Notes: a model not told the origin generated them from the sequence alone. A stretch of DNA of 13,914 nucleotides from Calditrichia bacterium (GCA_037381445.1 JARRQT010000065.1:1-13914), one strand, 5' to 3'; counted from the stretch's first letter, positions 1-10,200 are shown. A program made the numbers and translations.

Positions 1-86
1 GTCGCCGCGAACCGATTCGTGTATCCGGCGTTATGATTAAATATTGCTATATTTCGAATTGTCTTTTGAGAAGGAAAAGCGGAAAG

Positions 87-1709
87 ATGAGGAAGCGGGA
101 GTACAAAGCTGATGTGGTCATTATTGGCGGCGGCCTGGCCGGTATCGCCACGGCATTTGAACTGCTGGATCATCACAAAAAAGTGATTATCCTGGACCGT
201 GATAAGGAGGAAAATTTTGGCGGCCTGGCCAAAGAATCATTCGGCGGGGTGATGATGGTAGACACGCCCCTGCAGCGAAAATCACGGATCAAGGACAGCC
301 CCGAACTGGCGCTTGCCGACTGGCTCAGCTATGCCGAATTTGAAGGAACGGACCGCTGGCCCGCCAAATGGGCGGAAGTCTATGTGAACACCTCCCTGGA
401 AATGATATACCGCTGGCTTACCGAAAGGTCGGTTACATTTCTGCCGGTGGTGAACTGGCCGGAACGGGGACTTTTTCATCCCGGCAACTCCGTGCCCCGC
501 TGGCATATCGCCTGGGGGACCGGCTATGGTATTATTGAATCCCTGCTGGGACATCTGAAAAAGCATCCCAATTTCAAAGATTTGCGGCTCTGCTTTGGTC
601 ACAGGGTGAATCAGTTGACTTCTCATAATGGTGAAATTCAGGGCTGCGCGGGAATCCTGGAAGAAACGGGCGAAGAGTTCAGCGCAGAGGGCGGGGCAGT
701 GGTAGTGGCGTCCGGCGGCATCTGCGGCGGCGATCTGAGCAAGGTGCGCGAAAACTGGTACAGGCCCTGGGGCGACCCCCCGAAAACAATTCTGAACGGT
801 TCACATCCCTACGCGGACGGCATGGTGCAGGATGTGGTCGGGGAACTGGGCGGCAACATTACCCACCTGGACAAACACTGGCATTATGCGGCGGGAATAT
901 TTTTCCCCAATTCCGACCGGCCCATGCACGGGCTGAGCCTGGTGCCGCCCCGTTCCGCCCTGTGGATGAATGCACTGGGCGAGCGCATCGGTCCCGTGCC
1001 GCTGATGGGATACACCGACACCCGCTATCTAGTGGAACAGATCTGCAGACAGCCCGGCCAGTATTCCTGGCAAATCCTGAACCGGAAGATCGCCGTGCGG
1101 GAGCTGGCTGTTTCCGGCAGCCATTATATGACCGCCTTCCGCGAGAAAAGAAAACTGCGCATGGTCTGGGAGCTTCTCTTCGGAAACAAGAATCTCACCC
1201 GGCGGCTGATCCGCGAATCCGGGGATTTTGTCACCGCGAATTCCCTGCCTGAACTTGCCGAACGTATGAATGAAAAGAATGGCGAATACAGGATTGATCC
1301 AAATCTGCTGGAACGGGAAATCAGAATGTACGATGACCAGATTGACCGCGGCATCAAATTTTTTAATGATGATCAGTTGCGGCGGCTCATTAATTTCCGC
1401 GGTTACCGGGGCGACCGGCTGCGCATGTGCAGGTTCCAGAAAATAAACGATCCCAAAGCCTATCCGCTGATCGCCATCCGCGAATTTATTCTCAGCCGCA
1501 AGAGTCTGGGCGGCATCCAGACCGACCTGCAGTGCAGGGTGCTGAAAAAGGACGGCAGTCCCATCCCCGGTCTCTACGCTGCGGGCGAGGCGGCCGGTTT
1601 CGGCGGGGGCGGGATTCACGGCCTCCGTTCCCTGGAAGGCACCTTCCTGGGCGGCTGCGTGCTCACCGGCCGGCGGGCGGGAAAGGCAATCTCAGGAGAA
1701 AACTTATGA
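87..1709 (+). CDS. FAD-binding dehydrogenase (FAD_binding_2 / 3-ketosteroid dehydrogenase-like family of unknown substrate), ~540 aa
   Basis: N-terminal dinucleotide-binding motif DVVIIGGGLAG...ILDRD and C-terminal SLGGIQTD...IPGLYAAGEAAGFGGGGIHGLRSLEGTFLGGC, typical of this flavoprotein family. ATG at 87 (purine-rich AAGGAAAAGCGGAAAG upstream) is preferred over 33. Confidence 0.85.
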   Translation: MRKREYKADVVIIGGGLAGIATAFELLDHHKKVIILDRDKEENFGGLAKESFGGVMMVDTPLQRKSRIKDSPELALADWLSYAEFEGTDRWPAKWAEVYVNTSLEMIYRWLTERSVTFLPVVNWPERGLFHPGNSVPRWHIAWGTGYGIIESLLGHLKKHPNFKDLRLCFGHRVNQLTSHNGEIQGCAGILEETGEEFSAEGGAVVVASGGICGGDLSKVRENWYRPWGDPPKTILNGSHPYADGMVQDVVGELGGNITHLDKHWHYAAGIFFPNSDRPMHGLSLVPPRSALWMNALGERIGPVPLMGYTDTRYLVEQICRQPGQYSWQILNRKIAVRELAVSGSHYMTAFREKRKLRMVWELLFGNKNLTRRLIRESGDFVTANSLPELAERMNEKNGEYRIDPNLLEREIRMYDDQIDRGIKFFNDDQLRRLINFRGYRGDRLRMCRFQKINDPKAYPLIAIREFILSRKSLGGIQTDLQCRVLKKDGSPIPGLYAAGEAAGFGGGGIHGLRSLEGTFLGGCVLTGRRAGKAISGENL

Positions 1710-3457
1710 AAAATGAAAAGAAGACGCAGAGGAGCGGGGCGTGGCTGTGTGTTCATGCGCTGGAGCAACTGCCTGTTCAATACACCTTTGGCATTCCGGG
1801 TGTGCAGAATACAGAACTCTATGACGAATTGAACAAATCGGAGAAAATCCAGCCCGTGTTGGTGACCCACGAAGGCGGGGCCGCCTTTATGGCGGACGCC
1901 ATCAGCCGGACATCCGGCCAGATCGGCACGCTGGTCATTGTGCCTTCCGCCGGCGTCACCCACGCCATGAGCGGGATCGCGGAAGCCTACCTGGACGGCA
2001 TTCCCATGCTGATCATCTCGGGCGGCATCCGGCGGGATATTGACAAGTCTTTTCAACTGCACGAGTGGGACCAGCACCGCGCTCTGGCGTCGGTCACCAA
2101 AAAGACCACTTTAATCCGGAAACATGAGGAAATTGTGCCGGCAATTTTTGAATCCTACCGCGTTGCCGTGTCCGGCGAGCCGGGACCGGTTTTTATCGAA
2201 ATTCCGGTGGACATCCAGTTGTTTCGCGGGGAGGTGGCTGAATTGCCGGCATTCGAAATGCACCGCGAGACCGCAGAGATCGACCCCGCCAAAATTAAGC
2301 AGGCGGCGGACCTGATCAAAAAATCAAAATCGCCGGGAATGTTTTTAGGATGGGGCTGCCGGGACTGCACGGCGCAGGCGGTGGAATTGGCGGAACTGCT
2401 GGGGGCGCCGGTCTCCACCACCCTGCAGGGACTCAGCGTGTTTCCGGGGAATCATCCGCTGCATGCCGGCATGGGATTCGGTCCCAGCTCGGTGCCGGCG
2501 GCAGAGAATGCCTTTAAAAACTGTGACTGCCTGCTGGCTGTCGGCACCCGTTTCGGAGAGATTCCCACCGGCAGTTTCGGCGTTACGGTACCGGAAAACC
2601 TGATTCATATCGATATAAATCCCAATGTTTTCAATAAAAATTATCCGGCAAAGGTGGCCATCGAGGGAGACAGCGGTGAGGTCCTCACTGAATTAATCGC
2701 GGCCCTGAAAAAGGAGAATTACAAACCGCGGGCGTCAGGTCAGAAAATAAGAGAACAGATCCGGACGGACAAGGAAAAATATGTGAAGGAATGGAAATCT
2801 TCGCTGAACGAGCGGGTGAATCCGGCCCTGTTTTTCGAAGAATTGCGCAGGCAGTTGGCCGATGATGCCATTATGGCAGTGGACGACGGCAATCACACTT
2901 TCCTGGCGGAAGAGCTTTTCCCGGTATTGCAGTCCAGGTGCTTTATTTCTCCCACCGATTTCAACTGCATGGGGTACTGTGTGCCGGCAGCCATTGGGGC
3001 CAAACTGGCCAATCCCGGCGGACAGGTGGCGGGAATTGTGGGTGACGGAGCATTTCTGATGACCTGCATGGAAATACTGACCGCTACCACCCAAAATGCC
3101 GGAGTGGTTTATTTTGTATTTCATGACGGGGAGCTTTCCCAGATTTCGCAGGGACAGGAGATTCCCTACAACCGCAAGACCTGCACTATTTTGGGTGAAA
3201 TCAAACTGGAAGGTGTTGCCAGGGCAACCGGCGCTGCTTTTCTGGAAATGGCGCACAACAGTGACATCGAAACCCTGATCGGTTCTGCCCTGCAGACTGC
3301 CGCCAAAGGCCAGCCGGTGATCGTGGATGTGAATATCGATTACTCCCGCCGCACCCGCTTTACCAAAGGTGTGGTCGGCACCGTGCTGAAGAGATTTCCC
3401 CTGGGGGACAAGGTCAGGTTTGTGGGAAGGGCGTTTTGGCGGAAGGTAAGGGGGTAG
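1706..3457 (+). CDS. Thiamine diphosphate-dependent enzyme, acetolactate synthase large-subunit-like, ~583 aa
   Basis: TFGIPGVQN, catalytic Glu in THEGGAAFMADA, PGPVFIEIPVD, central IHIDIN, MGYCVPAAIGAKLA and ThDP motif GDGAFLMT. Start 1706 overlaps the upstream stop (ATGA), with AGGAG just upstream. Confidence 0.9.
   Translation: MKNEKKTQRSGAWLCVHALEQLPVQYTFGIPGVQNTELYDELNKSEKIQPVLVTHEGGAAFMADAISRTSGQIGTLVIVPSAGVTHAMSGIAEAYLDGIPMLIISGGIRRDIDKSFQLHEWDQHRALASVTKKTTLIRKHEEIVPAIFESYRVAVSGEPGPVFIEIPVDIQLFRGEVAELPAFEMHRETAEIDPAKIKQAADLIKKSKSPGMFLGWGCRDCTAQAVELAELLGAPVSTTLQGLSVFPGNHPLHAGMGFGPSSVPAAENAFKNCDCLLAVGTRFGEIPTGSFGVTVPENLIHIDINPNVFNKNYPAKVAIEGDSGEVLTELIAALKKENYKPRASGQKIREQIRTDKEKYVKEWKSSLNERVNPALFFEELRRQLADDAIMAVDDGNHTFLAEELFPVLQSRCFISPTDFNCMGYCVPAAIGAKLANPGGQVAGIVGDGAFLMTCMEILTATTQNAGVVYFVFHDGELSQISQGQEIPYNRKTCTILGEIKLEGVARATGAAFLEMAHNSDIETLIGSALQTAAKGQPVIVDVNIDYSRRTRFTKGVVGTVLKRFPLGDKVRFVGRAFWRKVRG
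3372..3457 (+). repeat. Direct repeat 1, copy in the intact gene (3' end of the ALS-like gene including TAG)
   Basis: 86 bp matching 4296-4381 at 80/86 positions by hand alignment. The first 19 bp (TGGTCGGCACCGTGCTGAA) are identical. Confidence 0.97.
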
Positions 3458-3638
3458 CAGTCGATTAGGGGAGCGAGTTCTGCCAGATTGTAATAATGAT
3501 ACTGCAAGAGAGCAAAGTCATAAGACTATAAAATCGATGTTTCTGTACAATGCAGTTTGAGAATTGCAACAGTCCGGCAGCATTGCAGATCTGCTAAGTG
3601 CAGGAATTTCAAATACCTCGATTTCATATGGCATTGGA

Positions 3639-3920
3639 TCAAGGCCGTTTTTCAGGATCCTGCCTATTGTCAAATACTGCATGTACTATGATTTCTGCTT
3701 TTTCTATGGAATAAAAAATAGAGAATGGAAACCTTCTGATAATAAACCTTCGAAGATTCGAGTGACTGATCTCGCACATTTCGGGAAAGTCGTTTATTGC
3801 TAATATCGCCACTTCAATACAATCAAGGAATTCGAACCCGAGGCCTCGCCTTTGCCTTTCATACCAGGTGAATGCGAATTCCAAATCATTTCTGGCGCGT
3901 TCTGTATAACGAAGTCTCAC
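3639..3920 (-). CDS. Type II toxin, RelE/ParE family, 93 aa
   Basis: MRLRYTERARNDL...WYERQRRGLGFEFLD...RRFPFSIFY...IIVHAVFDNRQDP is the characteristic RelE/ParE pattern. It overlaps the upstream antitoxin by 4 nt (3917-3920). Confidence 0.9.
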   Translation of the reverse strand: MRLRYTERARNDLEFAFTWYERQRRGLGFEFLDCIEVAILAINDFPEMCEISHSNLRRFIIRRFPFSIFYSIEKAEIIVHAVFDNRQDPEKRP

Positions 3921-4144
3921 TTATTCTTTTTCCTTATTTCGTTGTGAACATGCTTCCAGTCATGTAGTATCATTTTGCCGCTCTTATATTCTTCATATCG
4001 CTTATCCAATTCTGCTTTTTGCCATTCAGGTAAGGGCAGCTCTGAATTGCTGCGGGCTATTGAATCCCAAATATCCTCAACAAGAATGAGCTTTTCAGGC
4101 AAATCCAATTTGTCAATCTCTTTCATGATTTCATCTGGTTTCAT
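3917..4144 (-). CDS. Putative addiction-module antitoxin (TIGR02574 / Unstab_antitox-like), 75 aa
   Basis: EKLILVEDIWDSI...LPEWQKAELDKRYEEY...W pattern. AGGAG RBS at 4152-4156; directly upstream of the RelE/ParE gene. Confidence 0.88.
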   Translation of the reverse strand: MKPDEIMKEIDKLDLPEKLILVEDIWDSIARSNSELPLPEWQKAELDKRYEEYKSGKMILHDWKHVHNEIRKKNK

Positions 4145-4180
4145 ATGCTTTCTCCTGCTAGGTTATTTGAATTTAACGAA

Positions 4181-4209
4181 AATATAATAAAATCAGCTAT
4201 TAATAACAA
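4181..4209 (-). promoter_or_regulatory. Putative sigma70-type promoter of the TA operon
   Basis: On the minus strand, TTGTTA (4209-4204), a 17-nt spacer and TATATT (4186-4181), 36 nt upstream of the antitoxin ATG. The AT-rich context makes a chance match possible. Confidence 0.5.
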
Positions 4210-4295
4210 ATTGAATGGCCGAAATGATAGAATTGCAGCGTGTCGGAGTCTTTATGGATATCGGTTGCTCCTATTAGATGCGATTTACGAAAGAC

Positions 4296-4381
4296 TGGTC
4301 GGCACCGTGCTGAAAAGATTTCCGCTGGGCGACAAGGTCAGGTTTGTAGGAAGGGCGTTTTGGAGGAAGGTGAGGGGGTAG
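4296..4381 (+). repeat. Direct repeat 1, orphan copy of the ALS-like gene 3' end; decayed homology extends upstream to ~4254
   Basis: Encodes the same peptide VGTVLKRFPLGDKVRFVGRAFWRKVRG* as the intact gene, with 6 synonymous differences. 4254-4295 aligns to 3329-3371 with many substitutions, an in-frame TAG and a 1-nt deletion. Confidence 0.95.
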
Positions 4382-4387
4382 AGAATA

Positions 4388-4424
4388 TTCCGGCCCGGCA
4401 GCGGCAATATGCCGGCCGCCGGAA
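4388..4424. terminator. GC-rich hairpin between the orphan ALS 3' end and the convergent katG stop; possible terminator
   Basis: TTCCGGC-CCGGCA (4388-4400) pairs with TGCCGG-CC-GCCGGAA (4410-4424): 13-bp stem, 2-nt bulge, 9-nt loop. No clear U-tract. Confidence 0.45.
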
Positions 4425-4484
4425 CCGGAGGTTGGTTAATTTTCGCCATCTTGTCAGCAGCTCTCAGAGAGGTTTGTTCGATGA

Positions 4485-6695
<2,211 letters not shown>

Positions 6696-6755
6696 CTATT
6701 TTGAATGTATGCGTTTCTCTCCAATGCCAAAAAAATATAGATCACAATAAAAGAC

Positions 6756-6969
6756 AGCAAATGGAAACCAGGGGGCATTGCCTGCCATCTTTATTGAGTG
6801 ATCCTAAACGCAGCTCTTCAGTCACCTTAATCACTACCATCGTCGAGTCATCTGTCAGCGCCGCTTTGCCGTTCTGGAAAAGCCTACGGATAATTTGCCG
6901 GGCCGGTTTATTCGCATGTCTTTCCAATGATTTTATGATATTTTCGGTGCCGCAGGTTTCCGGATTTTC
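6756..6969 (-). repeat. Direct repeat 2, orphan diverged copy of the phosphatase gene 3' end plus ~40 bp of its downstream sequence
   Basis: Aligns to ~7529-7758, with identical blocks of 28 bp (6804-6831 = 7578-7605) and 22 bp (6898-6919 = 7687-7708). About 85% identity over 54 aligned codons by hand count, a 15-nt in-frame gap and a lost stop codon. Confidence 0.93.
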
Positions 6970-7004
6970 CTAATCTTTTCTATGATTGGATCATTTGTCT
7001 CCAT
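6933..7004 (-). pseudogene. Truncated small partner (putative antitoxin) gene of the PIN toxin
   Basis: ATG at 7004 follows the reconstructed PIN stop (7008-7006), with AGGAG at 7015-7011. METNDPIIEKIRKIR resembles the 'DPIIEEIRKIR' small proteins I recall downstream of this PIN subfamily. It runs into the orphan repeat after ~15 codons and stops. Confidence 0.6.
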
Positions 7005-7005
7005 T

Positions 7006-7478
7006 TTATTCTCCTACTGATTCGATGGGTATTACCAACAAAGGCACAAGAAGGTCAGAATGTTATTCACACGCCCGATGTGAGGGTACTATTGGCGTGT
7101 GCTAAATACCTGCAATTCCGGTAAGCAAAAAATCGTATCTATGATATGCAGCCAAAGCAAGACGGAGGGGTTTTTCACTGGATCGGACGGCATTACTTTC
7201 TGCTGAATGCAGAACCGGACAATCTCGAGGATTTCCGGATCAATTCCCATCAGCGGCAGATCATTCATTAGGTTCAATACCTTCCTGCATTTGTCAGCAG
7301 CATAATCCCTGGAGTTTAGCCCATCCAGCACAGCGGGGCCGGTAGCTGCAGAAAATTTTTTTCTTTGATAGTCCCGCCACACCTTAGTCCATTCCCGACG
7401 AGCTGCCGCGTCCGGTTCGGATTGTTCATTGCAATAAAAGCCGGGAATGGTGGTCTCAATGTATACCTTGGGTCTCAT
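7006..7478 (-). pseudogene. PIN-domain (VapC-like) toxin pseudogene with about four frameshifts
   Basis: N-terminus MRPKVYIETTIPGFY is PIN-type. C-terminal motifs are recovered in successive frames: LRLALAAYHRYDFLLT, (W)NCRYLAHAN, HIGRVNNIL and LLVPLLVIPIESVGE*. Confidence 0.82.
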
Positions 7479-7528
7479 CGTAGATTCAAGTTTTTATCTA
7501 TTGGAAATTAAACTCTACTTCGAAGGAT

Positions 7529-7758
7529 AGCAAATGGAAAGTAGGGGGGCGTCGCCAACTATCTCACTATTCTGATTCTAAACGCAGCTCTTCAGTCACC
7601 TTAATGACCACCATTGTCAAATCATCAGCTAGCGGCGTATTCCCGGCCCAGCTTTTGCCGTCCTCGTAAAGTCCCCGGATAATTTCCCGGGCCGGTTTAT
7701 TCGCATGTTGTTCCAGTGATTTCATGACATTTTCGGTGCCGTAGGTTTCCCGCTTTTC
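7529..7758 (-). repeat. Direct repeat 2, copy in the intact phosphatase gene and its downstream flank
   Basis: Partner of 6756-6969 (offset 774 bp on one side of the 15-nt gap and 789 bp on the other). Confidence 0.93.
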
Positions 7759-10032
7759 ATCGAACAGTTCGTGCAAGCCGTCGCTGGTCATCACCACCAC
7801 ATCTCCCGGACTGAGCGTAATAGAATCGCTGGCATAGGGAAAATCGCTTACTGCGCCCAAAGGCATGGCCTTGAGGATAACCTGTTCGCATTGCCCGGTC
7901 TGTGCCCGGTAAATCAACAGCGGCGGCATGCCGGCGGAACTGTACCGGAGGGTTTTCCCGTTGATGCGGGCAATGGCCAGGCACATGGTTAACCTGTGAA
8001 GTTTCATTTGCTTGATGGCCCGGTTTGCGGAGACCAGGATATCCTTTACTTCCCGCGTTTCGGATAAAATATTAAGCAGCCCCTTGGTCGCGGTCACCAT
8101 ATTGCCCGCTTTGAGGCCGTGTCCGGTAGCGTCACCAATGGCCACCATCAGATTGCCGTCATCGGACCGGAAGAAATCGTAGTAATCACCCCCCACCTCC
8201 GTGGCGGTTTCCATGAATACGGCTATATCCAGGCCCTCGATATCGGGGACCTCCCGCGGAAGCAGGGAAAGCTGCAGTTCCCGGGCGGCTTCCAGCTCTT
8301 TGTTTTTGCGATCATTCTCCAGAGCGATGGCCTGACGTTCCAGCTCAAGCTTGTGCGCATGGCGTTCCTGCGCTATCGTTTTCCGGGACAATTGTCTGAC
8401 ATTAACCAATTGTACTTCCAGATCTTTATTTACGTAAGCAAAGTTATAGGAAAGGAAAACGGACATCGATACGGCCAGGCTCATCATTCCATAGACATAG
8501 ACCTGTCTCGCTCCGAACACGCTGCCAATTACCGAATAATCGACAAGAATTTGCAGGATGATAAAAACTGCCATGGTCAGGAAGCCGGCCAGCAGCAGAC
8601 CGCCGCCCCTCAGCTGCCTGGTGTTCTGACGGAGACTGCTAAAAATGACTTCCAGCAGCGTTAAACCAAAAAACACATAATTCAGAGCCAATACAAAATT
8701 GATACTGAATCCCGAAGCGATCGCCAGGCTGAGGACGATAAACAAGACCAGGAATCCCCACGTTCTTTTCGGCAGTTTCGTATAATTCATTTCATAGACG
8801 GTCAGCAATCCAAAGAATACGGCCACTGTAATTGAAAAGTAATTCAGTTTTGTAAAGAGAATGACTGTTGTGACACTGCCGATAAAATCCGGTTCGTAAT
8901 GGAAGTATGTTATTCCGGCAAATCCCAGCATGCAGATGGCATAGAACAGGTTTTGTCGTTGTTTTCTGAAAAAGCCGTAAAGGGTAAAATGGAGGAAGGC
9001 CAAAACCAGGGGAATCAAAGTGAAAACCATTTGATGCGCCGTTGTTGATCTCACCATGCCGGCTGTCCGGAACGCATGGGCCAGGCTGGCCAAAGTGATG
9101 AGAAATCCCGGATCGTATCCCAGCTCGGACTGTTTCTTCCAATGGTAGTTGGCATAGCGCACTGCAATCAGTTGATCATATCTCGGATCGATCCTGATTT
9201 GCCGCCACCCTGACCCGGCATCCGGCTCGTTGGTCGCGGCCGATGAATCAATTTTGCCAAAGGAATAAAGCAGCCTCCCATTGTAGTAAATCCGGGAGGC
9301 GCCTAATTGGCTGATGCGGAAGGCCAGTGTTCTGTTCCAGAGCGAGGAATCGACGTACATGTGAAATCTGAACCACCCGGTCCCGTCCCATCTCGGCTGG
9401 GAGGGCTCAGTCCAGCGGATGAAGGGATCGGTCACCACCCAGCTGCTGTCATCAAAGGCGGGCATGGCCCAGGCTGCATTATCGCCCGGGTGATAGCGCC
9501 AGAGACCGTTAAGCCTTAAAGGCTGGCGCTGCGGAAGAAAGCGTTCTGCCGTCAGGACCAGCCGCCCGTTGAGCATTTTATTGAGCCAGCCATAAACGGT
9601 AATGTGAACCACGGTGTCGCTTTCCACTTTCAGTCGGAAATTGTCATATGTTCTACCGTCTTTGTTAAGGGCTTCGCTCCACCATGACCCGGCGGTCACT
9701 TTGAAATCAATTTTTTCCCCTTTTGGGAAGGAATGGCGGGCTGTCCAGAGGGAATCGGATTTGGGGGTCATCGGAACGGCAGCGGCATTCCAGTCCCCCA
9801 ATTGGGTGGTGTTTCCGCTCAGGTAAACCTTTTGCCCGATTGCCGGAGCTTTAAGCAGGACAACGAACTCTACCGAGCGGTCCGGCCGGGATGTGTTGGA
9901 ACAGGACAGAAGAAGGATGGCAGAGAGCGCCAGACAGATAAAGCTTAAGACGAAGAGATTGCTGCCCTGCAAATCCGGTCGCGGGAAAGTGCTGAGTAAT
10001 TTCTGATCTTCAGGAGTTTTTATGCTATCCAT
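7567..10032 (-). CDS. Membrane sensor Ser/Thr phosphatase: CBM20-like domain, galactose-binding-like beta-sandwich, ~7 TM helices, coiled coil, SpoIIE/RsbU (PP2C) domain
   Basis: PP2C motifs ARELQLSLLP, EVGGDYYD, IGDATGHG, SAGMPP, SDG and DDLT. CBM20-like VYLSGNTTQLGDWN...W...FKVTAGSW; WRYHPGDN..WA...FDDSSW and GTGWFR sandwich motifs; multiple hydrophobic segments. Start uncertain (10056, 10032 or later). Confidence 0.88.
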   Translation of the reverse strand: MDSIKTPEDQKLLSTFPRPDLQGSNLFVLSFICLALSAILLLSCSNTSRPDRSVEFVVLLKAPAIGQKVYLSGNTTQLGDWNAAAVPMTPKSDSLWTARHSFPKGEKIDFKVTAGSWWSEALNKDGRTYDNFRLKVESDTVVHITVYGWLNKMLNGRLVLTAERFLPQRQPLRLNGLWRYHPGDNAAWAMPAFDDSSWVVTDPFIRWTEPSQPRWDGTGWFRFHMYVDSSLWNRTLAFRISQLGASRIYYNGRLLYSFGKIDSSAATNEPDAGSGWRQIRIDPRYDQLIAVRYANYHWKKQSELGYDPGFLITLASLAHAFRTAGMVRSTTAHQMVFTLIPLVLAFLHFTLYGFFRKQRQNLFYAICMLGFAGITYFHYEPDFIGSVTTVILFTKLNYFSITVAVFFGLLTVYEMNYTKLPKRTWGFLVLFIVLSLAIASGFSINFVLALNYVFFGLTLLEVIFSSLRQNTRQLRGGGLLLAGFLTMAVFIILQILVDYSVIGSVFGARQVYVYGMMSLAVSMSVFLSYNFAYVNKDLEVQLVNVRQLSRKTIAQERHAHKLELERQAIALENDRKNKELEAARELQLSLLPREVPDIEGLDIAVFMETATEVGGDYYDFFRSDDGNLMVAIGDATGHGLKAGNMVTATKGLLNILSETREVKDILVSANRAIKQMKLHRLTMCLAIARINGKTLRYSSAGMPPLLIYRAQTGQCEQVILKAMPLGAVSDFPYASDSITLSPGDVVVMTSDGLHELFDEKRETYGTENVMKSLEQHANKPAREIIRGLYEDGKSWAGNTPLADDLTMVVIKVTEELRLESE

Positions 10033-10200
10033 CTTGATTACGTAAAAACATAACATGGTAAATTTATTAAAAAATGATGGAATATGTATGTTCTTTATTA
10101 CTTTTTTGAAGACAGAAGAAATGCCGGGGATGAGGCTGAGCGTAAGACAGTAAGGCCAGTGGGTCCTGAGAGAGAAAAAATGTAACAGAAAAAGAAATGG

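Follow-up and report, generated by a model that had tools for sequence, protein, structure and literature searches.

We describe here a duplicated gene end that encloses a toxin-antitoxin (TA) pair on a contig of a Calditrichia bacterium (GCA_037381445.1 JARRQT010000065.1:1-13914; 13,914 nucleotides, the whole of which is called the window below). The gene concerned encodes an ALS-family enzyme dependent on thiamine diphosphate (ThDP), and its tail stands a second time, as an orphan, beyond the TA pair and beside katG. From the start of the window to the end of katG, the locus is laid out as follows:

33..1709, plus strand: FAD-binding dehydrogenase (PRK12834 family), operon partner of the ALS-like gene (NCBIfam NF009472, 488 bits at a cut-off of 476)
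1706..3457, plus strand: ThDP-dependent ALS-family enzyme of 583 amino acids, host gene of the scar (Pfam TPP N/M/C)
3372..3457, plus strand: copy 1, the translated gene tail (27 codons and stop), from the repeat comparison
3458..3638, no strand: non-coding spacer, GC content 0.41, without a stable hairpin and without an attC consensus
3639..3920, minus strand: ParE/RelE-superfamily toxin of 93 amino acids (ParE_toxin, PF05016)
3917..4144, minus strand: addiction-module antitoxin of 75 amino acids (PF09720; TIGR02574 over its cut-off)
4145..4235, minus strand: AT-rich upstream region of the TA pair, GC content 0.28, with a weak sigma-70 match at 4209-4181
4236..4295, plus strand: proximal stretch of the orphan, decayed, with homology to 3311-3371 and carrying missense changes, one stop and a 1-nt gap
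4296..4381, plus strand: copy 2, the fresh orphan tail with six silent differences (a second strain, described below, has a 1-nt insertion at 4326)
4388..4430, no strand: hairpin rich in GC, lying between the stops of the orphan and of katG (z-score -3.49 on the minus strand, -1.95 on the plus strand)
4485..6656, minus strand: katG, catalase-peroxidase, single copy in the genome

As a preliminary description of this DNA had pointed out, the last 27 codons and the TAG stop of the ALS-family gene (3374-3457) recur at 4298-4381, at an offset of 924, and our codon table of the 86-bp copies (3372-3457 and 4296-4381) agrees with it: 80 of 86 bases are identical, and the six differences are all silent (AAG/AAA, CCC/CCG, GGG/GGC, GTG/GTA, CGG/AGG and GTA/GTG). 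Under random substitution, six silent changes out of six are expected with a probability of 2.7e-4 to 1.0e-3 across transition/transversion weights of 1-8. The copies enclose an insert of 0.84 kb, and elsewhere in the genome the tail is unmatched, its partner copy being the sole other match. Adding the 16 bp upstream lengthens the fresh tract to 102 bp, with 8-9 silent changes, one missense change and one gap. The claim that the copies diverged while translated, as two alleles, is therefore sustained for their distal 86-102 bp, where the pattern of differences supports divergence as working alleles rather than the decay of a local duplicate.

The orphan is built in layers. The match extends upstream beyond a 1-nt gap, on an offset of 925, with 10/12 identities at 3356-3367, then 13/24 and 11/21 down to 3311, beyond which identity falls to background (11/51), so that the gradient from upstream to downstream reads 11/51, 11/21, 13/24, 10/12 and 80/86. 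Across 3308-3355, 24 of 48 positions match on this offset, a level equalled by 14 of 27,727 positions, and the translation of the proximal stretch scores above 99.5% of 2.7 million windows under a profile built from 150 homologues. The repeat, longer than 30 bp on any count, thus measures 86-102 bp, or about 146 bp with the decayed part included. Only a TA pair had been thought to lie between the copies; the pair is confirmed, and about 60 bp of decayed ALS sequence lies there with it. Since the orphan continues upstream in this decayed form, the duplicate appears to be old, and a working allele seems to have refreshed its distal part. At least two events would be needed to put a fresh allele distally in register with a proximal copy already decayed.

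The orphan also seems to occupy the older site. There is a hairpin behind it (z-score -3.49, katG strand) and none behind the working ALS-family gene (z-score 0.40), which suggests that the orphan, joined to the hairpin and katG, stands in the likely ancestral context. As a terminator, the hairpin at 4388-4430 lacks a T-run and received no score in a strict terminator scan; an Rfam scan of 3300-7700 returned nothing credible. The 78-amino-acid open reading frame (ORF) at 4145-4381, without a Pfam match, is read as incidental. The protein of the host gene scores under every curated ALS equivalog cut-off shown, its closest named relatives are from Calditrichaceae (73-75% identity), and orthologues above 60% identity occur in 2 of 40 relatives; the gene is an accessory gene in its family. 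Nested non-coding repeats of 45-490 bp were separately observed directly behind the ALS stop at three Calditrichaceae-like ALS loci (L041, L119 and L173).

The predicted TA pair has the gene layout of a type II ParDE/RelBE-type addiction module, with the antitoxin gene overlapping the downstream ParE-family toxin gene by 4 nt (3917-3920). GC content is 0.41 in the toxin gene and 0.38 in the antitoxin gene, against 0.55 in the host gene, 0.60 in katG and 0.48 in the genome, and promoter and terminator scans gave matches no commoner than in shuffled sequence. Among 24 TA homologues, none shares flanks with the window, similarity ending at or near the edges of the TA genes. A PF05016 search of the bacterium's own genome gave zero matches despite the presence of the gene, so such family searches can miss members. 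In homologues of the pair at L324, L325 and L328, stems resembling attC sites by eye follow the toxin gene, and this TA family may also travel as integron cassettes.

We then compared the window with sequencing reads from four of five listed runs (X5 had near zero coverage), using assembled contigs, which drop rare variants; the output listed 40 of 1062 substitutions, 12 of 16 indels and 15 of 41 joints. X1 is possibly the source sample and hence not independent, and X2 and X3 represent one sample from another study. The source assembly is a fragmented metagenome of 401 contigs, the genome is 92% complete, and the contig itself is 13.9 kb. The two-copy layout proved genuine, as had been claimed, and the repeat is not a strain chimera: an X1 contig spans both copies (1000-4459) with one difference, and the longest identical run between the copies is 19 nt. 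The X2/X3 strain is ~95% identical to the window. One X3 contig runs unbroken through 3449-4524 (TA pair, orphan, hairpin and katG end) with 46 differences and two gaps, a second covers the ALS-family gene up to 3390, and an X2 contig covers 6582-9659 and repeats the layout there. TA pair, orphan and katG thus keep the same order in a ~95%-identical strain from another study, and both strains seen in the reads carry the filled site. No single contig of the second study spans both whole copies; the X3 contigs end at 3390 and resume at 3449, beside the first and last diagnostic sites (3391 and 3448), breaks that hint at two gene-tail haplotypes. In this second strain (X2 and X3), the toxin gene is frameshifted by a 1-nt deletion at 3864, codon 19.

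A second, decayed scar, absent from the preliminary description, lies beyond katG:

6750..6969, minus strand: second scar, a decayed orphan of the last ~63 codons of a SpoIIE-domain gene plus ~45 bp of katG-upstream DNA
6960..7004, minus strand: first 15 codons of a PIN partner gene, cut where the SpoIIE orphan starts
7006..7478, minus strand: frameshifted PIN/VapC-family toxin gene, the cargo of the second scar
7567..10056, minus strand: CBM20/7TM/SpoIIE phosphatase gene, of which the end at 7523-7758 is the intact copy

The SpoIIE orphan is 76% identical to the gene end (7523-7758) over 238 columns and carries a 15-bp deletion. The copies differ by 7 silent and 18 non-silent codon changes, a pattern distinct from that of the ALS tail (Fisher p 0.002), and when the non-silent changes are polarised by the orthologue in a related genome (G009), 10 map to the orphan's branch and 3 to that of the gene. 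Unlike the ALS tail, the SpoIIE orphan appears to be decaying neutrally. Homology of the PIN partner gene to the partners at L245, L246 and L289 stops at 6960, and the junction falls in ~10 nt of imperfect microhomology, cutting that gene mid-frame as an illegitimate joint would. The ~45 bp beside the repeat match DNA upstream of katG in G009; since they also follow the intact SpoIIE gene, katG would already have neighboured the SpoIIE gene. Within this region, a ~25-bp motif upstream of katG (6750-6775 and 7523-7548; L241:755-785) is conserved in G009 and was duplicated with the SpoIIE end; it is possibly a regulator site for katG. The second strain carries a compensated +1/-1 frameshift pair in the SpoIIE-domain gene (window 8251-8260).

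Searches for further duplicated gene ends were run on the bacterium's own genome (scans of 3769 and 3696 ORF ends). Two of the 14 candidate rows flagged were kept, the SpoIIE scar and a third scar, C5; the remaining 12 were dropped as tandem paralogues, wrong-frame ORFs, dispersed repeats or noise, and the ALS case itself was missed by the scan filter because the orphan frame is open for 78 codons. At C5 (10833-13409, L257), the tail of an NAD(FAD) oxidoreductase gene appears again 1291 bp downstream with a ZIP transporter gene between, the repeat being 74% identical over 125 bp with 4 silent and 14 non-silent codons. By eye, this scar stands at the end of a probable CO-dehydrogenase operon.

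Moreover, the pattern recurs around TA pairs of other genomes. We surveyed 107 TA loci with 183 gene ends (up to 30 per search, the ParE and antitoxin locus sets overlapping) beside 209 unmatched control loci with 1313 gene ends, classifying by eye, and found clean duplicated gene ends in 2/183 cases at TA loci vs 0/1313 in controls (p 0.015). At the first (L322:1026-1988; G381:C387), a pair of the ParE/antitoxin family, its toxin 65% identical to the window toxin, lies between 101-bp copies of a GspE/PilB-type ATPase gene end that are 93% identical and differ by five silent and two missense changes; the orphan adjoins the start codon of the YidD-like gene that comes next. At the second (L246:1082-1993; G028:C42), a pair of the same PIN family as at the second scar lies between 35-bp copies of a serine hydrolase gene end, 97% identical, which run on into different C-termini. 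The two loci have unrelated target genes and unequal repeat lengths. Two control matches were rejected as low-complexity or short repeats. A survey match at L289 was set aside as a duplicated TA partner, and another at L300 because the HNH tail there surrounds a neighbouring small ORF and not the query TA. That locus (L300:548-1381; G182:C220) has a 170-bp duplicated, frameshifted HNH-nuclease tail around the small ORF in a TA-like gene cluster.

The duplicated ALS end had been likened to the replacement 3′ ends left by integrase-type elements that target genes. This comparison fails: the contig has no integrase, integrase and transposase Pfam matches being absent among the 12 window proteins, and conserved element ends were not found. 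The genome encodes three tyrosine recombinases, one of them an integron integrase, all on other contigs; the serine recombinase family PF07508 was not found in it, an attC core-site pair (by consensus) was seen in neither insert, and no stable stem was found. Furthermore, the ALS end does not recur as a target, with a duplicated gene end at 0 of 129 ALS-family loci having at least 1 kb downstream (best score 18 vs 74 here), loci that are 55-75% identical relatives and not close kin. We conclude that the scar is not a site-specific element. The integron integrase of this genome, over the cut-off of TIGR02249, lies at L256:833-1825 (G000:C251).

We favour, as reasonably probable, an integrase-free insertion that duplicated a long stretch of its target, with TA cargo and later renewal of the distal orphan. 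In an older step, a fragment from a related strain carrying an ALS tail (at least ~146 bp), the spacer and the TA pair would have come in, recombining homologously through the tail and joining illegitimately at the opposite end. The simplest route would join the ends of the fragment into a circle before one crossover, and entry was probably by such a single crossover of an end-joined fragment. The resident tail, which we take to be the orphan, would have moved 0.92 kb downstream together with the hairpin and katG, and would then have decayed. In a younger step, the distal 86-102 bp of the orphan would have been renewed by recombination with the working ALS allele of a sister lineage, whether through allelic exchange with the orphan as a homology arm, through re-integration of an excised circle, or through conversion by the own gene, the tail of which was then exchanged for another allele. 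The TA pair would be ordinary cargo; addiction may have favoured its retention against deletion between the repeats.

Several points weigh against this account. At about 50%, the proximal homology is weak, over a stretch selected post hoc, and the clean pattern was found in just 2 of the 107 TA loci examined. Neither an empty-site allele nor a joint of a 924-bp circle, for which the preliminary description had proposed to look, was seen among the 15 of 41 joints listed, from contigs only, and the X1 and X3 contigs run unbroken over the orphan; the best ALS relatives in the genome and metagenome collections are 55-75% identical, with katG in one such locus and not behind ALS. The three routes to renewal give the same product, as do circular and linear one-sided entry. 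The genome encodes ComEC, and ComEC in 10 of 14 control genomes means that its presence says little. Finally, addiction is not needed to keep the layout in the second strain, since the toxin is frameshifted there.

The strongest competitor, unlikely though it seems, is a single event in which an incoming fragment delivered the new tail and the TA pair in place of the old end of 86-102 bp, which was displaced; similarity further upstream would then be chance or an extended microhomology that guided the joint. It is the simplest account of the silent-only part, a tract that reaches 102 bp with the 16 bp upstream (8-9 silent changes, one missense, one gap), and L322 is a clean one-layer case; against it, in-register homology runs 45 bp further with codon structure (the 24/48 stretch equalled by 14 of 27,727 positions, and in the top 0.5% by profile). 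A defined islet of 924 bp arriving at once likewise loses ground to the layered orphan, the TA pair without conserved ends, the ALS end that recurs as a target at none of the 129 loci and the pattern at other genes with other cargo. Of the earlier proposal that an incoming fragment displaced the old end, the displacement agrees with the likely ancestral context of the orphan, and a single event by a defined islet lacks support in the form given. A tandem duplication of purely local origin, converted within the genome and without an incoming allele, is a distant prospect: the X3 contig breaks at 3390/3449 hint at exchange between the copies in that population, but a non-coding copy would gather mostly non-silent changes, of which 0/6 are seen, and the TA pair is foreign in composition.

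A broader event is also conceivable, in which one katG module (4236-6969), ending in a donor ALS tail on one side and a donor SpoIIE tail on the other, came to lie between the TA and PIN pairs in a single insertion, both orphans being flanks of the donor. Of the three scars in the genome, two do flank katG, and G009 (96% complete), where ALS and its partner gene were not found, has a close katG (84-86% DNA identity) and a decayed, orphan-like ALS-tail remnant (L248:5120-5188; G009:C75) that matches the orphan at 33/39 and the gene at 31/39 positions and equals the orphan at 3/4 diagnostic sites. This remnant, however, lies at a contig end and its link to katG is unsupported (shuffle test, 227 of 1000), the two orphans are unlike in age and pattern, and the ~45 bp of katG-upstream DNA behind the intact SpoIIE gene place katG there already, which makes the module improbable. 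Slightly lower still we place the remnant of a site-specific integrative element (CIME-like or e14/icd-like) at the ALS end, its integrase lost or acting in trans. The product described for icd/icdC is the same, with silent differences (PMC13626634), and three tyrosine recombinases, including the integron integrase, are at hand in the genome; yet the contig has no recombinase, PF07508 was not found, 0/129 ALS loci are duplicated, the 24 TA homologues share no flanks, neither insert has an attC pair, and the junction of the sister scar cuts a gene. Hardly credible, at last, is an assembly chimera of two strains: the metagenome is fragmented (401 contigs), X1 may be the source and no second-study contig spans both whole copies, but the longest shared run of 19 nt, the X1 contig over both copies with its one difference, and the X3 (3449-4524) and X2 (6582-9659) contigs repeating the layout in another strain and study all speak against it.

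Integrase-free insertion that leaves a long stretch of the target duplicated is also the better comparison, rather than integrase-type elements, when the locus is set beside known systems. Restriction-modification (RM) addiction modules are described as lacking a mobility gene and as accompanied by target duplications that are long and variable (Furuta, Abe, Kobayashi 2010, PMC2853133). Like members of that class, the locus has a small addiction-type module without a mobility gene and a unique imperfect repeat over 30 bp; their repeats are variable and sometimes overlap the 3′ end of a gene, as here, and inserts under 20 kb without an integrase or transposase in or beside them characterise the class, the present one being 0.84 kb (PMC2853133). 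It departs from the class in its cargo, a predicted type II TA pair (ParE and TIGR02574) with no DNA-cutting enzyme in place of an RM system, and in a layered repeat that is coding throughout and, distally, differs at silent sites only. The word "toxin" occurs 0 times in the main text of PMC2853133, and a TA review, in its accessible part, cites the RM insertion work merely as a parallel (PMC2654758).

The proposed entry resembles the integration of re-circularised DNA and homology-facilitated illegitimate recombination (HFIR), with one-sided gene-end homology, a flanking duplication and no dedicated recombinase (PMC3240628). In that E. coli work, the lacZ end was duplicated over 109-950 bp in 56 of the 60 recombinants with one-sided homology, which was attributed to re-circularisation and a single crossover, and HFIR proper usually left deletions (PMC3240628); the work differs from our case in being a laboratory conjugation assay, its accessible text holding nothing on later renewal of an orphan. 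An incoming tail that displaces the resident one downstream is likewise described for rhs C-termini (PMC2935791) and for type VI secretion system (T6SS) effectors of Vibrio cholerae (PMC5361080), and the rhs circle model predicts a layered orphan once a different strain receives a circle that was cut between gene and orphan (PMC2935791). In the rhs and T6SS cases, the new tip alters the protein and arrays build up, whereas here the protein is unchanged, the host gene is metabolic and there is one orphan per site. Prophage e14 at icd shares a replacement 3′ end, silent differences and a displaced C-terminal pseudogene, icdC, but is a prophage of 15 kb that excises site-specifically from a fixed site, features all absent here (PMC13626634). 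The T6SS and e14 systems thus yield products resembling ours through routes that are different or overlap. A literature search, with subscription journals mostly outside its reach, turned up no paper in which TA pairs are inserted together with duplicated gene ends; TA-linked examples may be present in the supplements of PMC2853133.

The locus reveals no new enzyme or element family. Its value lies in the arrival of lone chromosomal TA pairs at intergenic sites without a mobility gene, which has so far been poorly explained, and of which the window holds a pair of adjacent dated examples: at one the junction is visibly cut, at the other the orphan appears renewed. It extends a pattern known for restriction systems to modules unable to cut DNA, and a cargo that cannot cut DNA argues that the duplication is the work of host recombination and not of the cargo. 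Any genome set can be searched for the silent-only signature and for the gradient of decay. Tentatively, and with more doubt than confidence, type II TA pairs may spread as minimal recombinase-free mobile units that borrow the 3′ end of a neighbouring gene, the orphan serving as a renewable homology arm. If so, the cassette would need nothing but host recombination to exit and to enter sister strains again, every round would refresh the distal orphan with a working allele and leave a graded record of decay, and TA pairs would be enriched in such scars across phyla.

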